From a virus (taxonomy: Duplodnaviria; Heunggongvirae; Uroviricota; Caudoviricetes): a DNA stretch of 4,325 nt. Positions 33 to 3,651 of the stretch are shown in pieces. Position numbers and translations under genes: made by a program. The notes under the pieces are model-generated. The model was given only the letters and a program-made list of their open reading frames with translations, searched no databases and was not told where the DNA came from. The stretch's first letter is position 1; each line of letters opens with the position of its first letter. The stretch lies in the IMG/VR virus record IMGVR_UViG_3300018478_000173; one strand, written 5' to 3'.

Positions 33-82
33 TCTGGAGATTCAGGGGGCCAGTCTATCTGGAGATTCAGGGGGCCAGTCTA
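33..82. repeat. Perfect tandem direct repeat, 2 x 25 bp (TCTGGAGATTCAGGGGGCCAGTCTA at 33-57 and 58-82); each copy contains a short inverted repeat CTGG...CCAG
   Basis: Read directly from the sequence; both copies identical over 25 bp and exactly adjacent. Sits in an intergenic stretch where all three + frames hit stops within the first 21 nt of the window. Confidence 0.9.
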
Positions 83-350: not shown

Positions 351-569
351 AATTCGGTTGATGGACTATTGTCTGATCGATGGAAGTCTTGTAAAAACGA
401 GCCAGCATAGTGAATCCCCCTGTGCGGAGGGGCGTCTGACATGGTCTCCATAGCGATGGTCACAATACGCAGATTCAGTAGTCAGGCTGAATCTACCGGG
501 AGGCACCCGGCACTATGCTGCTTATGGTGTATACATAGCGATCGGCCCCTCTCCGGAGGGGCTTTTTTT
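351..569 (+). ncRNA. Unit 1 candidate structured small RNA (~219 nt): 5' leader, closing helix 404-412/511-519, hairpin 417-432 (CCCCT-GTGCGG-AGGGG), divergent core 433-495, hairpin 496-510 (CCGGG-AGGCA-CCCGG), tail, terminator
   Basis: Closing helix is 9 perfect base pairs (AGCATAGTG with CACTATGCT) and carries an A-T pair where the other units have G-C. The core contains a strong local hairpin AGATTCAG-N8-CTGAATCT (471-494). No conserved reading frame. Confidence 0.45.
545..569 (+). terminator. Intrinsic terminator of unit 1: 7-bp GC stem (GCCCCTC/GAGGGGC), loop TCCG, then T7
   Basis: Perfect hairpin 545-562 followed by TTTTTTT 563-569. Confidence 0.8.
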
Positions 570-595
570 GTGCGGGAAAAGGCTGTGTTGTTAAG

Positions 596-604
596 TGTTA
601 AATT
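596..604 (+). promoter_or_regulatory. Candidate extended -10 promoter (TGtTAAATT) for unit 2; hexamer is the same as I recall for the lambda pR' -10 (TAAATT)
   Basis: TG 596-597, hexamer 599-604; predicted start near A611 in the conserved CCTCACA context; no canonical -35, as is common for extended -10 promoters. Confidence 0.3.
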
Positions 605-610
605 CCTCAC

Positions 611-838
611 AGTTCAGATGGTTGATGCTTGCCTGTCTGAGGGGGAGTTGTTAAAAAAGTTCTGCATGGTGAATCCCCCTGTGCGGAGGGGCGACTGGTG
701 TGATTTGCATCTTTTCTGTTGTAGGCAATGCAAACGCGGGTTCAGGGACACCAGACTGGACTCACCGGGAGGCACCCGGCACCATGTTCATGATGATACA
801 GATACGCAGTGTCAGCCCCTCTCCTGAGGGGCTTTTTT
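611..838 (+). ncRNA. Unit 2 candidate structured small RNA (~228 nt): closing helix 664-671/780-787, hairpin 676-691, divergent core 692-764, hairpin 765-779, terminator 815-838
   Basis: Closing helix GCATGGTG with CACCATGT (one G-U pair). Core contains nested hairpins (CTGGTGT 697-703 with ACACCAG 749-755; TTTGCAT 706-712 with ATGCAAA 730-736). Confidence 0.45.
815..838 (+). terminator. Intrinsic terminator of unit 2: same 7-bp stem, loop TCCT, then T6
   Basis: Hairpin 815-832 followed by TTTTTT 833-838; the only change from unit 1 is in the loop. Confidence 0.8.
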
Positions 839-865
839 ATGCAGGAAAAACGCTGTGTTGTGAAA

Positions 866-874
866 TGTTAAATT
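866..874 (+). promoter_or_regulatory. Candidate extended -10 promoter (TGtTAAATT) for unit 3
   Basis: TG 866-867, hexamer TAAATT 869-874; same position in the unit as in units 2 and 4. Confidence 0.3.
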
Positions 875-880
875 CCTCAC

Positions 881-1098
881 AGTTCAGATTGTTGATGCTT
901 GCCTGTCTTACGGGGAGTTGTTAAAAAAGTTCTGCATGGTGAATCCCCCTGAGCGGAGGGGCATATCAGCGCAGGTGTTTCTACTCTATCCTTTCTGTGC
1001 GGGTTCAGGTGCTGATACTGAACTCACCGGGAGGCACCCGGCATCATGCATATGGTTAACAGACACGTAGCGAAGCCCCTCTCCGGAGGGGCTTTTTT
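881..1098 (+). ncRNA. Unit 3 candidate structured small RNA (~218 nt): closing helix 933-941/1042-1050, hairpin 946-961 (loop GAGCGG), divergent core 962-1026, hairpin 1027-1041, terminator 1075-1098
   Basis: Closing helix TGCATGGTG with CATCATGCA (9 bp including one G-U). Core has the stem TATCAGC...GCTGATA. Confidence 0.45.
1075..1098 (+). terminator. Intrinsic terminator of unit 3: same 7-bp stem, loop TCCG, then T6
   Basis: Hairpin 1075-1092 followed by TTTTTT 1093-1098. Confidence 0.8.
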
Positions 1099-1115
1099 AT
1101 GCAGGGAAAAGGCTG

Positions 1116-1124
1116 TGTTGTGAA
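1116..1124 (+). promoter_or_regulatory. Candidate extended -10 promoter (TGtTAAATT) for unit 4
   Basis: TG 1116-1117, hexamer TAAATT 1119-1124; same position in the unit as in units 2 and 3. Confidence 0.3.
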
Positions 1125-1130
1125 ATGTTA

Positions 1131-1349
1131 AATTCCTCACAATTCATGAGGTTGATGATTGTCTGATTGATGAGGAGTTTGTTAAAAAAAACGGGCATGG
1201 TGAATCCCCCTGTGCGGAGGGGTGATATCGTATCATTTCCTGTGTGGCCGACTGATATCACGGACATTTGTTCACCGGGAGGCACCCGGCACCATGCAGT
1301 ATACAGAGATTAGGCATACATCCAGGCTCCTCATCGCAGGAGCCTTTTT
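1131..1349 (+). ncRNA. Unit 4 candidate structured small RNA (~219 nt): closing helix 1195-1202/1290-1297, hairpin 1207-1222, shortened core 1223-1274, hairpin 1275-1289, non-homologous terminator 1325-1349
   Basis: Closing helix GCATGGTG with CACCATGC (8 perfect bp). The 5' conserved block carries small insertions relative to units 2 and 3. Core has the stem TGATATC...GATATCA. Confidence 0.4.
1325..1349 (+). terminator. Intrinsic terminator of unit 4: different sequence, same architecture (GGCTCCT-CATCGC-AGGAGCC then T5)
   Basis: 7-bp stem 1325-1331 with 1338-1344, T-run 1345-1349. Replaces the GCCCCTC hairpin used by units 1-3. Confidence 0.7.
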
Positions 1350-1355
1350 ACATGT

Positions 1356-1384: not shown

Positions 1385-1581
1385 GGCAAGGAAGCAAGGA
1401 ATAAATAACAAAACGTGAAGTAATTTATTCAGCACCCTAATAATACCTTAGAGTAATCACCTTGCGCAACTGTAAGGGCGTATTTCTTTTTTGCGGGCTG
1501 TTTTTCTGTGTGACTTTTGTGTTTCCGGAGGTCAGCCCGTGCCTTCTCTGACTCAGAACATTATCCCGGCCGGGAGGATTC

Positions 1582-3546
1582 ATGGCATTTAAACACTACG
1601 ATGTGGTCAGGGCGGCATCGCCGTCAGACCTTGCTGAACGACTGACACAAAAACTGAAGGAGGGCTGGCAGCCATTTGGCAGTCCGGTGGCCATCACGCC
1701 TTATACCCTGATGCAGGCCATTGCGGCGGAAGGTGATGTCACCACACCAGTGGCGGTGACCGGTAATGAGGGTAAGGCGGTGGCTGTCAGTGCCACCAGC
1801 GACCCGGAGTATTACTTTGTTGTGGTTCTGGCAGGGCAGTCAAATGGCATGTCGTATGGTGAAGGTCTTCCGCTGCCGGAGACATATGACCGTCCGGACC
1901 CGCGTATTAAGCAACTGGCGCGCCGCAGTACGGTGACACCGGGCGGTGTCGCCTGTAAATATAACGACATCATTCCGGCGGACCATTGTCTGCATGATGT
2001 GCAGGACATGAGCCGTCTTAACCATCCGAAAGCGGAACTGTCAAAGGGGCAGTACGGAACCGTGGGGCAGGGGCTGCATATTGCCAAAAAACTGCTGCCG
2101 TTTATACCGGCGAATGCGGGCATTCTGCTGGTTCCGTGCTGTCGTGGTGGTTCAGCGTTCACCACCGGAGCTGATGGCACATACAGTGACGCTGGCGGTG
2201 CCTCGGAGAATTCAGCGCGCTGGGGTGTGGACAAGCCGCTGTATAAGGACCTTATCGGTCGAACAAAAGCAGCACTGAAGAAGAACCCGAAAAATGTGCT
2301 GTTTGCCGTGGTGTGGATGCAGGGGGAATTTGATTTTGGCGGTACGCCGGCAAATCACGCAGCACAGTTTGGTGCGCTGGTTGATAAATTCCGTGCAGAC
2401 CTGACGGATATGGCAGGTCAGTGCGTTGGTGGCTCTGCTGGCGGTGTTCCCTGGATATGCGGGGACACGACGTATTTCTGGAAGCAGAAGAACGAATCCA
2501 CGTACCAGACGGTGTACGGCAGCTATAAAAACAAAACGGAAAAGAATATCCATTTCGTACCGTTCATGACGGATGAGAACGGGGTGAATGTGCCGACGAA
2601 CAAACCGGAAGAAGACCCGGACATTCCGGGTATCGGGTATTACGGTTCGAAATGGCGTGACAGCTCAGCCACCTGGACGTCACAGGACAGGGCGAGCCAT
2701 TTCAGCACCTGGGCACGCCGGGGGATTATTTCCGACCGTCTGGCAACGGCGATTCTGGTGCACGCCGGGAGAACCGCTGAATTCATTACCGGAAAACAGC
2801 CTGATATGGTGAGGCCCACCGTACCTTCCGGTGAAGGTCCGGAGAGAGAGGCGGAAGCCCCGGCCAGTAAGCGTACCCTGATGAGTCTGCTGGCATCCGG
2901 CGAAGACCTGGCATCACAGGGCTGGCGCTATTATCACAAACCGGCGGGCGGAGACAGTGTTAACAAAAACATTGCTGAAGCGGTGGTCAGTGATGCGGGG
3001 GCTACGGGAGGTAAGGCTCTGCAACTGAACAAACCGGAAAACCACATCTGGTTTCTGGAGCATGATGCAGCCGGACAGGGGGCGGAGTTACTGAAGAAGG
3101 GCGGACGTGTGAGCGTACGGTTTAAGTTGCCGGGTTCACTGGTGCCGAATCAGTTTGCCCTGGGCATTTACTGGCAGTTGTCGTCCCTGCCGGAGGGGGT
3201 GATGCTGTCAGGAGAAGGTAACGATATGCTGATGTCTTTCTTCCTGCAGACGGATACGACGAACCTGAACGCGATGCATCACAGGAAGCCGAATGCGAAG
3301 CTGGATACATTCGGGGTCTTTGATAACGGATGGCACACGCTGGCTTTTGAGTTTGCCGGAAACAACAGCATTCAGGTGACACCAGTACTGGATGAGAAAC
3401 GGGGAGCGGCGTTCACACTGGTGAAGTCACCGGCATCGGGGGCGGTGGACAAACTGCAACTGACCGATATATCAAAATCGGCGACGTATACGCTGCTGAT
3501 TGACAGCATTGCGGTGGAAGTGAACAGCACAGACACTGCGGCATGA
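1582..3546 (+). CDS. nanS-p: Prophage-encoded sialate O-acetylesterase (NanS-p-like), 654 aa: N-terminal DUF1737-like domain, SGNH/SASA esterase domain with the GQSN motif, and a long C-terminal domain
   Basis: Intact 1965-nt ORF. GGAGGA at 1573-1578 just upstream of ATG 1582. GQSN at residues 85-88 (nt 1834-1845), characteristic of the sialate O-acetylesterase branch of SGNH hydrolases. The N-terminus MAFKHYDVVRAASPSDLAERLTQKLKEGWQPFGSPVAITPYTLMQAIAAEG matches, from memory, the DUF1737 N-terminal domain of NanS-p proteins of EHEC lambdoid prophages. Function is from recalled homology, not a search. Confidence 0.9.
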   Translation: MAFKHYDVVRAASPSDLAERLTQKLKEGWQPFGSPVAITPYTLMQAIAAEGDVTTPVAVTGNEGKAVAVSATSDPEYYFVVVLAGQSNGMSYGEGLPLPETYDRPDPRIKQLARRSTVTPGGVACKYNDIIPADHCLHDVQDMSRLNHPKAELSKGQYGTVGQGLHIAKKLLPFIPANAGILLVPCCRGGSAFTTGADGTYSDAGGASENSARWGVDKPLYKDLIGRTKAALKKNPKNVLFAVVWMQGEFDFGGTPANHAAQFGALVDKFRADLTDMAGQCVGGSAGGVPWICGDTTYFWKQKNESTYQTVYGSYKNKTEKNIHFVPFMTDENGVNVPTNKPEEDPDIPGIGYYGSKWRDSSATWTSQDRASHFSTWARRGIISDRLATAILVHAGRTAEFITGKQPDMVRPTVPSGEGPEREAEAPASKRTLMSLLASGEDLASQGWRYYHKPAGGDSVNKNIAEAVVSDAGATGGKALQLNKPENHIWFLEHDAAGQGAELLKKGGRVSVRFKLPGSLVPNQFALGIYWQLSSLPEGVMLSGEGNDMLMSFFLQTDTTNLNAMHHRKPNAKLDTFGVFDNGWHTLAFEFAGNNSIQVTPVLDEKRGAAFTLVKSPASGAVDKLQLTDISKSATYTLLIDSIAVEVNSTDTAA

Positions 3547-3583
3547 TAAAAAAAGCCGCCAGTTACCGGAATGGACTGGCGGT
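3547..3583 (-). terminator. Strong hairpin right after the nanS-p stop, oriented as an intrinsic terminator for the minus strand (A7 on + before the stem, no T-run after it)
   Basis: A-run 3548-3554; stem GCCGCCAGT (3555-3563) with ACTGGCGGT (3575-3583), 9 bp including one G-U; 11-nt loop. It may still slow plus-strand transcription after nanS-p, but it lacks the U-tract of a classic + terminator. Confidence 0.4.
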
Positions 3584-3651
3584 GGTAATACCCATGGAGA
3601 AATATAAAGGAACGATACTTTCGTGCTCTGTTTTTTTAAATGAAAACAGTT

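Follow-up and report, generated by a model that had tools for sequence, protein, structure and literature searches.

The window (the whole 4325 nt stretch of DNA that was analysed) carries four tandem units between positions 369 and 1352 on the plus strand, all of which are clear members of the STnc100 small-RNA family (Rfam RF02076). The best overall explanation, to which we assign a probability of roughly 0.6, is that they form an array of sibling small RNAs (sRNAs), in which the divergent core at the centre of each unit is mainly an arm conserved in shape, not a seed, and in which target pairing is more likely to involve the 3' tail. The region would thus comprise four self-contained STnc100/EcOnc27/PasD genes for prophage Hfq-associated small RNAs, placed in the 'moron' zone of a lambdoid (Stx-type) prophage, which is bounded by the late promoter and the lysis genes. 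As the product of a genome scan the finding is ordinary, the family being already known and the arrangement a usual tandem array of sibling sRNAs.

The original prediction had located the four units at these positions and had read them as genes for regulatory small RNAs in which the scaffold is constant and the centre varies, and both statements were borne out by matches of 119–142 bits to RF02076. Units 1 to 4 scored 119.5, 140.8, 141.7 and 141.3 bits, respectively, all full-length matches that exceed the curated gathering score of 47 bits by about 70–95 bits and lie far beyond chance (E values of 1e-27 to 1e-32). A fifth, degenerate unit was sought at 83–368, and nhmmer returned only the four copies at E <= 10. 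STnc100 is a known family of Hfq-associated small RNAs from lambdoid and Stx prophages (EcOnc27/sRNA103), with PasD as a relative; by analogy with the homologues EcOnc27 and PasD, the four units themselves may also associate with Hfq. The window was 99.8% identical to the late region of a prophage in E. coli O22:H8, in which moron genes lie on one side and genes for a SASA/NanS-p esterase, a holin and a lysozyme on the other, the late-region context (Q, moron, esterase, holin, lysozyme) of prophages in Enterobacterales. Relatives were present in at least 14 enterobacterial genera, from which 88 distinct representatives were compared for core structure. The four copies are presumably siblings built by recombination among prophage copies. 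A convergent terminator was located after the array on the opposite strand (1362–1384); comparison of the minus-strand candidate with Rfam gave sub-threshold noise only and no match to the AsxR or AgvB families.

Each gene would run from a sigma-70-like promoter through a structured 5' domain of 103–124 nt and a single-stranded variable tail of ~25 nt to an intrinsic terminator (Table 1). Units 1 to 4 each have a predicted promoter of their own and a predicted intrinsic terminator with a U tail, as expected of Hfq-dependent trans-acting sRNAs. The promoters have the form TTGNCT, 17–18 nt spacer, TAAAAA. The geometry of the unit 1 promoter was conserved across 119 distinct upstream regions of relatives, and the match to consensus was 7.24/12 at the fixed position compared with 4.3–5.4 in shifted controls. 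On the basis of this geometry the start of transcription was placed on the first G, the first base, of helix P1, where it probably lies in each unit; the 5' end of PasD1, as estimated from RNA-seq, coincides exactly with the first G of P1. Since the start is probably at P1, the Rfam STnc100 model may include promoter sequence, and its first ~29 positions, with the -10 TAAAAA, appear to be promoter and not RNA.

Table 1. Positions of the predicted gene parts and core elements of the four units within the window.
Feature	Position	Strand	Details	Basis
Unit 1 promoter	369–397	+	-35 TTGTCT 369–374; 17 nt spacer; -10 TAAAAA 392–397; start site predicted	
Unit 1 RNA, ~167 nt	405–571	+	P1 405–412/511–518; P2 within 416–432; P3 496–500/506–510	
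Unit 1 core, 62 nt	433–494	+	Pj C433-G469, G434-C468; insert 441–467	
Unit 1 pseudoknot	435–440/481–486	+	TCTGAC/GTCAGG, the latter in the loop of Pb (471–478/487–494)	
Unit 1 tail	519–543	+		terminator scan
Unit 1 terminator	544–563	+	followed by T run	terminator scan
Unit 2 promoter	629–657	+	-35 TTGCCT 629–634; -10 TAAAAA 652–657	
Unit 2 RNA, ~177 nt	664–841	+	P1 664–671/780–787; P3 765–769/775–779	Rfam, folds
Unit 2 core, 72 nt	692–763	+	Pj C692-G736, G693-C735; Pb 738–745/756–763	
Unit 2 pseudoknot	695–701/748–754	+	CTGGTGT/ACACCAG; insert hairpin TTTGCAT/ATGCAAA at about 702–734	
Unit 2 tail	788–813	+		terminator scan
Unit 2 terminator	814–833	+		terminator scan
Unit 3 promoter	899–927	+	-35 TTGCCT 899–904; -10 TAAAAA 922–927	
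Unit 3 RNA, ~166 nt	934–1101	+	P1 934–941/1042–1049; P3 1027–1031/1037–1041	Rfam, fold
Unit 3 core, 64 nt	962–1025	+	Pj C962-G999, A963-T998; Pb 1001–1008/1018–1025	
Unit 3 pseudoknot	964–970/1011–1017	+	TATCAGC/GCTGATA	
Unit 3 tail	1050–1072	+		terminator scan
Unit 3 terminator	1073–1094	+		terminator scan
Unit 4 promoter	1159–1188	+	-35 TTGTCT 1159–1164; 18 nt spacer; -10 TAAAAA 1183–1188	
Unit 4 RNA, ~156 nt	1195–1352	+	P1 1195–1202/1290–1297; P3 1275–1279/1285–1289	Rfam, fold
Unit 4 core, 51 nt (topological variant)	1223–1273	+	TGATATC 1223–1229/GATATCA 1254–1260; hairpin GGAC 1262–1265/GTTC 1270–1273	
Unit 4 tail	1298–1323	+		terminator scan
Unit 4 terminator	1324–1345	+		terminator scan

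The limits of the cores were taken between the invariant anchors ...GGAGGGG and ACCGGGAGGCACCCGG, and each core was thereby 1 nt shorter than the ~63, 73, 65 and 52 nt first estimated. Pairwise identity among the units was 0.93–1.00 in the 5' scaffold and 0.92–0.96 in the 3' scaffold, compared with 0.53–0.60 in the cores, against 0.53 +/- 0.04 in shuffled cores. As the scaffold is near-identical and the cores stand at the level of shuffled sequence, the cores are truly unalignable, in agreement with the earlier description of them as barely alignable. The short motifs said to be shared among them were only partly recovered: GGTTCAGG was found in units 2 and 3 (739 and 1002), while CTTTCTGT was exact in unit 3 only (991); the word TTTCTGT was present at 713 in unit 2 and at 992 in unit 3. 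The local stems that had been quoted exist, in unit 1 (AGATTCAG 471–478 with CTGAATCT 487–494) and in unit 3, and the centre does fold; however, the unit 3 pairing is a pseudoknot to the loop of the 3' hairpin and not a simple stem.

Across the 88 relatives the core contained a short closing helix (Pj), a hairpin of 8–9 bp (Pb) and a pseudoknot of 6–7 bp, in which the strand immediately after Pj pairs with the loop of Pb. All three were maintained through compensatory changes, and it is because the helices have drifted in this manner that the core sequences differ; selection is on the shape of the core, not on its sequence. The 5' domain would accordingly be a five-helix junction (P1, P2, Pj, Pb and P3) with a pseudoknot, or loop-docking helix, of 6–7 bp, and the 'divergent core' would consist of Pj, the pseudoknot strand, an insert of 12–45 nt and Pb. 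The insert is the only free part, and the core is probably for the most part an arm conserved in shape, in which a single site is free for insertion, and not a seed. The second Pj pair of unit 3 is A-U (A963-T998) where units 1 and 2 have G-C. In unit 4, GATATCA precedes the short hairpin and is not inside it, so the helix is nested and not pseudoknotted; relatives of this type co-vary (TGATACC/GGTATCA). The pseudoknotted topology is consequently not universal in the family.

The structure statistics were calculated from an alignment of 41 diverse sequences. In P1, 89.6% of cells were paired, with double changes at 7/8 pairs; the corresponding figures for Pb were 95.1% and 6/6, and P3 was 100% paired. 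The structure as a whole was 83.9% paired, compared with 71.6% after shuffling and 39–47% when the partners were slid. One Pj pair (30–82) was GC in 20 sequences, AU in 10, UA in four and CG in two, and Pj was recovered independently by RNAalifold. At a fixed register the pseudoknot was 54.7% paired, compared with 39.6 +/- 2.3% in shuffled alignments (0/500), a value that is only about 55% because the register shifts by +/-1. In a register-free test on the 88 representatives, the 5' strand scored 6.06 against its own Pb loop and 4.06 +/- 0.12 against permuted partners (0/10,000), while the negative control, pairing of the same strand with its own insert as a nested alternative partner, gave 3.91 compared with 4.06 when permuted. 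The strand occurred as 64 distinct sequences, most commonly forming helices of 6–7 bp, with a few variants of 4 bp only, and PasD retains the pseudoknot (AATGATC/GATCATT). Words of the CCAG/CTGG type are common to many of the pseudoknots, and the register-free test was restricted to the loop. The minimum free energy fold of unit 1 recovered P1, P2, Pb and P3. The sequences of P2, P3 and the junction are fixed, the two stem-loops and the junction nucleotides being invariant from Escherichia to Erwinia; the P2/P3 surfaces presumably contact a conserved partner, either Hfq or a different host factor. ARAGORN detected no tRNA or tmRNA genes (0), despite the cloverleaf-like layout of the domain, and searches of the 5' domain against other Rfam families gave sub-threshold noise only. 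The pseudoknotted five-helix fold appears to be undescribed in the accessible literature.

The original prediction proposed that the cores set target specificity in the manner of seed-bearing or guide-type RNAs. Such a target-recognition element might be formed by the variable insert or by the Pb loop, the latter as a 'masked seed' with a co-varying internal partner, and the units would then regulate different RNAs. The cores are wholly different among units with identical scaffolds, and they form discrete, widely shared classes that reassort; the Pb loops, at 6–10 nt, are elements of the sort that antisense RNAs use to initiate pairing, and a U/C-rich, TTTCTGT-like insert motif common to units 2–4 looks like the sequence that surrounds the PasD seed. 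Nevertheless, the variation in the loop is matched by an intramolecular partner, for which ordinary structural drift suffices, and Pb, which would hardly be taken for a seed, varies equally. The inserts lacked a family-wide motif: the CU-rich candidate was present in 14/88 inserts against 10.3 +/- 2.8 expected and was rejected, as was pairing of the insert with its own 3' tail (TCTGT/ACAGA; 5.65 for own tails, 5.51 +/- 0.10 permuted, 397/5000). The complement of the PasD target motif is absent from the PasD core; it lies, as the predicted seed UGUGAG, in the single-stranded 3' tail. PasD is the only relative with interactome data, and its seed prediction is statistically weak (MEME E-values of 2.4e3 and 6.5 in the supplement). 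Furthermore, 99 of 265 pairs with the same core carried unrelated 3' tails, and the same core also occurred with unrelated promoters; the three modules, promoter, core and tail, are reshuffled independently of one another. A core-borne specificity element of this kind is therefore considered unlikely, although a lineage-specific seed may reside in the insert or the Pb loop; by analogy with PasD, target pairing would more likely be found in the 3' tail.

A further reading, offered originally as the alternative, is that constraint is relaxed and the centre is a dispensable, neutrally evolving arm with incidental stems. The insert, variable in length and devoid of a conserved motif, is compatible with this, as are the modest z-scores from single-sequence folding (-1.6 to -2.6), but many independent double changes in at least 14 genera have preserved Pj, Pb and the pseudoknot, and relaxed constraint can apply to the insert only; for the core as a whole it is improbable. 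Comparison across strains, measured from collinear alignments only, showed no acceleration of core evolution, with 1/1245 core sites differing among five close relatives compared with 1.14% in the adjacent esterase gene, which also speaks against relaxed constraint. The cores and the non-coding flanks did not differ significantly in divergence among close strains, and recombination history rather than selection may explain why the array as a whole diverges so little among them. The complex, pseudoknotted fold with its invariant loops and junction nucleotides, often immediately upstream of a sialate esterase gene, might also suggest a cis-acting, riboswitch-like aptamer that senses a ligand or protein and controls terminator read-through into the NanS-p esterase and lysis genes. 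In units 1–3 the 3' arm of P2 and that of the terminator are both CGGAGGGGC, yet only members of the E. coli type show this identity, and the alternative pairing was rejected. Different members of the family have unrelated tails and terminators and hence no alternative pairing that is conserved, and an aptamer and expression platform with mutually exclusive pairing were not found; the units occur in arrays or upstream of differing genes, this array is followed by a convergent terminator, PasD is a discrete RNA of 172–173 nt that is Hfq-dependent on Northern blots, and no riboswitch family in Rfam was matched. A cis-acting role is thus very improbable. The least credible reading is that the units are guide or scaffold RNAs of a mobile-element or defence effector (CRISPR-like, TnpB/IscB omega RNA, IS110 bridge RNA or type III antitoxin array). 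Tandem units with a constant scaffold and variable internal segments have that appearance, and an IS3 element adjoins the array in the closest genome; the element is missing from other relatives, however, every unit carries a promoter and a terminator of its own, and the variable segments pair together within one RNA. Within +/-3.5 kb of 113 loci no conserved effector, nuclease, recombinase or toxin gene and no other conserved protein partner was found; the clustered neighbours were confined to genes such as those for holin, esterase, Q, lysozyme and methylase.

STnc100-type RNAs flank the genes for Shiga toxin and NanS-p in pathogenic E. coli, and a 2025 study reported that HUS is predicted by sequence variants that overlap the copy linked to stx2a. 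Three points should change how the family is studied: its centre is a covarying, pseudoknotted arm and not an unstructured seed, transcription probably starts at P1, and promoter, core and tail are exchanged separately. With these taken together, target searches would be redirected to the 3' tail, a better structural model would be available for annotation, and the question is raised of what binds the invariant P2/P3 surfaces. It is conceivable, and we suggest it only tentatively, that the 5' domain of the STnc100/PasD RNAs serves as a dedicated module, five helices with a pseudoknot, for the binding of a ligand or of one specific factor from host or phage, giving 'adaptor' sRNAs with exchangeable promoters, cores and tails, in which the variable pseudoknot and insert tune co-resident copies or make them orthogonal.

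EcOnc27/sRNA103, an RNA bound by Hfq (Hfq-CRAC) and visible on Northern blots, corresponds to the STnc100 copy that lies downstream of stx2B. The array described here shares the niche of EcOnc27/sRNA103 in EHEC Stx2 prophages, downstream of the late promoter and moron genes and upstream of nanS-p and the lysis genes, and also its terminator and size class, but consists of four head-to-tail copies that differ from one another in core and tail. The Rfam STnc100 consensus, unlike these units, has weak nested central stems without Pj or the pseudoknot. Convergent sRNA dyads, EcOnc27/AsxR and EcOnc06/AgvB, have been described in lambdoid prophages (Tree et al., 2014); the arrangement here is similar, a forward STnc100-type gene with a convergent terminator after it on the opposite strand, although the minus-strand candidate does not match the Rfam families of AsxR or AgvB. 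PasD has been reported as a structural homologue, and its link to Hfq comes from Northern blotting and RIL-seq (PasD1/PasD2, EPEC E2348/69; Pearl Mizrahi, 2021; Zhu, Shabalina and Storz, 2026, preprint). PasD1 and PasD2 share with the present units P1, P2, Pb, the pseudoknot, the 5' end at P1, the single-stranded tail before the terminator and the prophage position, and the PasD promoter is of the same type (TTGACT, 18 nt spacer, TAAAAA). Unlike these units, PasD has no 3' arm of P3, and its score of 38–41 bits falls under the Rfam threshold; its tail and terminator are unrelated to theirs. OmrA/OmrB of E. coli and LhrC1-4 of Listeria are adjacent paralogous sRNA genes with their own promoters and terminators, tandem siblings in which the ends are conserved and the centre is divergent, and the four units resemble them in each of these respects. 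OmrA and OmrB are simple RNAs whose seed is the conserved 5' end, whereas the conserved part of the units described here is a large pseudoknotted junction, and their divergence is compensatory.

Tandem Repeats Finder resolved positions 300-1360 of the window as a tandem array with a period of 270 nt, and a four-way alignment of the units gave an unalignable centre between near-identical flanks. With core limits set by the invariant anchors ...GGAGGGG and ACCGGGAGGCACCCGG, the scaffolds were 0.92-1.00 identical between units and the cores 0.53-0.60, the level of shuffled cores (0.53 ± 0.04). These data confirm the original prediction of four units with a conserved scaffold and a divergent core, and the stems that it quoted were found at 471-478/487-494 and 964-970/1011-1017. 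All four units were full-length matches to Rfam RF02076 STnc100 (119.5-141.7 bits; gathering score 47 bits); no other Rfam family came close to this score for the units, and neither tRNA nor tmRNA was found in the window. The coordinates of the features are listed in the table.

Coordinates of predicted and observed features in the window
Feature	Position	Strand	Remarks
Unit 1 core	433-494	+	62 nt, between anchors
Unit 2 core	692-763	+	72 nt, between anchors
Unit 3 core	962-1025	+	64 nt, between anchors
Unit 4 core	1223-1273	+	51 nt, between anchors
Unit 1 predicted promoter elements	369-374/392-397	+	start 405
Unit 2 predicted promoter elements	629-634/652-657	+	start 664
Unit 3 predicted promoter elements	899-904/922-927	+	start 934
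Unit 4 predicted promoter elements	1159-1164/1183-1188	+	start 1195
Terminator 3' arms matching P2 3' arms	555-563, 825-833, 1084-1092		
Convergent intrinsic terminator	1384-1362	minus	faces unit-4 terminator
Possible promoter	TTGCGC 1469-1464, TATTAT 1445-1440	minus	18 nt spacer; by eye
8-nt repeat, GCAAGGAA x2	1386-1401		upstream of minus-strand terminator
SASA/NanS-p-type esterase gene	1582-3546		

Relatives were sought by scanning IMG/VR with the 18-mer of helix P3 and GTDB genomes with the P2 motif, yielding 154 instances, 118 distinct domains and 88 representatives. Genome matches fell in Escherichia, Citrobacter, Klebsiella, Enterobacter, Pantoea, Erwinia, Superficieibacter, Atlantibacter, Franconibacter, Trabulsiella, Phytobacter, Lelliottia, Mangrovibacter and Rosenbergiella. 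Most of the collected loci held a single copy (120, with six pairs, six triples and one quadruple); arrays are therefore a minority arrangement, and the sole quadruple is that of the window.

When 41 diverse domains were aligned with MAFFT (A1), 83.9% of cells in the named structure were paired; the shuffles gave 71.6% (0/500) and slid partners 39-47%. Double changes were seen in 7/8 pairs of P1 (89.6% paired) and in 6/6 pairs of hairpin Pb (95.1% paired), and P3 was almost invariant (100% paired, one compensatory C-G to U-A change). A short helix, Pj (A1 pairs 30-82 and 29-83), closes the variable segment and was also predicted independently by RNAalifold; pair 30-82 was GC in 20 sequences, AU in 10, UA in 4 and CG in 2 (G-C in units 1 and 2 and A-U in unit 3 of the window), and pair 29-83 was CG in 39 and UA in one. 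Single-sequence minimum free energy folds of all four units contained P1, P2, Pb, P3 and a hairpin in the insert, with both pseudoknot strands unpaired. The register of P2 is ambiguous (A1 columns 12-28; window 416-432 in unit 1), with two rare variants supporting either 13-28/14-27/15-26/16-25 or 12-27/13-26/14-25 plus 15-23/16-22 with A24 bulged; the latter frees G28 to extend Pj via the invariant C84.

In a listing of the cores, a strand starting 2-4 nt inside the core was reverse-complementary to the loop of the core's 3'-terminal hairpin, and the two vary in concert across relatives (CCAGTC/GACTGG, CTGGTG/CACCGG, ACTGGATA/TATCCAGT, AAGCCACA/TGTGGCTT, AAGTCACA/TGTGACTT, CAGCTA/TAGCTG). In one fixed register 54.7% of the A1 pseudoknot cells were paired (shuffles 39.6 ± 2.3%, 0/500; slid 27-45%), a signal blurred by register shifts of ±1. 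Free of register, the best helix that a 5' strand formed with the Pb loop of its own sequence averaged 6.06, against 4.06 ± 0.12 with the loops of other sequences; the observed average was reached in 0/10,000 permutations, and the result was unchanged with one sequence per pseudoknot class. The control pairing of the 5' strand with its own insert showed no complementarity (3.91 versus 4.06). The pseudoknot strands comprised 64 distinct sequences, with helices mostly of 6-7 bp. A variant is seen in unit 4 and its relatives, where the partner of the 5' strand directly precedes a shortened hairpin, so that the helix is nested; this helix also co-varies (TGATATC/GATATCA versus TGATACC/GGTATCA).

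The divergent core thus consists of Pj, a pseudoknot strand, an insert and Pb, and its only free part is the insert of 12-45 nt. The original prediction proposed that the core may set target specificity; the variability it described is there, but the specificity reading is mostly unsupported because most of that variability reflects compensatory changes within a pseudoknotted arm. No family-wide motif was found in the inserts, CU-rich words occurring in 14/88 versus 10.3 ± 2.8 expected; the enriched k-mers (ATGCA, AATGC, ATTGC, GACGC, AACGC) match the ...ATGC/...ACGC/...TTGC that, as read from the listing rather than from a positional test, ends most inserts just before Pb. In PasD, a relative from EPEC, the predicted seed UGUGAG, complementary to the RIL-seq target motif CUCACA, sits in the single-stranded tail that leads up to the terminator; nothing in the PasD core matches. 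By analogy, the tail would be the more likely place for a target-pairing seed, an option put no more firmly because the PasD motif is weak (MEME E-values 2.4e3 and 6.5). Tails and terminators are unrelated across the STnc100 family, which argues against a riboswitch-type platform. That the conserved 5' domain is a dedicated factor-binding module seems improbable.

Neutral or rapid core turnover left no sign among five close relatives, in which cores differed at 1/1245 sites, scaffolds at 0/1040 and the esterase gene by 1.14%; the contrast between core and non-coding flank divergence was not significant, as the array in its entirety is either young or homogenised. Modules of STnc100 genes reassort: across the family, 99/265 same-core pairs had unrelated 3' tails and 12 same-flank pairs had different cores.

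A sigma-70-like promoter was found at a fixed place in 119 distinct, otherwise unrelated upstream regions (match 7.24/12; shifted controls 4.3-5.4), its -10 element ending 3-9 nt before P1, with 4 nt the commonest distance. In each unit the predicted promoter would put the start of transcription on the first G of P1, and in PasD1 the RNA-seq estimate of the 5' end (NC_011601 1060260) falls exactly on that G; Rfam model positions 1-29, including UUAAAAAA, are therefore probably promoter. An intrinsic terminator follows each of the four units, and each unit is, from these predicted signals, a putative gene. A conserved block, ATGTTAAAT(T/G)(C/A)CTCACA(G/A)TTC, lies upstream of each -35 (338-352, 597-612, 867-882, 1127-1142) and of many E. 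coli-type relatives; it includes CTCACA, the motif reported in PasD targets, and may represent either a regulator site or the start of a short ORF (MLNSSQF...) that lacks an obvious ribosome-binding site. In units 1-3 the P2 3' arm (424-432, 683-691, 953-961) repeats the terminator 3' arm (CGGAGGGGC or nearly), an identity that the terminators of other family members do not share. Each RNA also carries two or three GGAGG/GGGAGG motifs resembling a Shine-Dalgarno or CsrA-type site.

At 99.8% identity, the window matches a lambdoid prophage of E. coli O22:H8; its identity to many further STEC prophages is 97-99%. Moron genes (methylase, tRNAs, TolA-like gene, HTH gene, IS3) lie 5' of the array, and the esterase gene, DUF1378, DUF826, holin and lysozyme 3'; across 113 loci, only ordinary late-region genes co-occurred with the RNA. 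A fifth STnc100 copy in the same prophage (NZ_CP067426.1, locus L001 3019-3220) precedes the array by ~3 kb; it follows a TolA-like moron gene and comes before a methylase pseudogene and an HTH gene. Window 33-82 consists of a 25-nt sequence duplicated exactly in tandem (TCTGGAGATTCAGGGGGCCAGTCTA x2), a point that the IS3 element abuts in the closest genome. The duplication resembles part of an STnc100 core hairpin, because it includes AGATTCAG (also at 471) and then a GGCCAGTC-like stretch. A weak Esr41-like match (3548-3621, minus; 25 bits versus a threshold of 102, E 0.12) with its own terminator lies between the esterase gene and DUF1378, where PasA/PasC/Esr41-type sRNAs have been described in related prophages. 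The minus-strand candidate at ~1355-1470 matched neither the AsxR nor the AgvB family, but its layout agrees with the convergent sRNA dyads of Tree et al. 2014.

The array is a tandem sibling arrangement of an sRNA family that is already known from the literature: the STnc100 copy 3' of stx2B overlaps EcOnc27/sRNA103, an Hfq-bound sRNA visible on Northern blots, whose overexpression raises fimZ and espA; many Sakai prophages carry such sRNAs at the moron site downstream of PR', often as convergent dyads; and PasD has been described as a structural homologue of STnc100 (2026 preprint). Apparently new relative to the Rfam consensus and this literature are helix Pj and the covarying pseudoknot, the five-helix junction in which P2 and P3 are invariant, the position of the promoter, and the reassortment of modules. 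Three IMG/VR contigs (L030, L052, L056) combine a full STnc100 5' domain, including P3, with a PasD-like promoter and 3' tail/terminator (GGCTGCGCATGGCGCGGCC), intermediates that link the two named families. PasD retains P1, P2, Pb and the pseudoknot (AATGATC/GATCATT).
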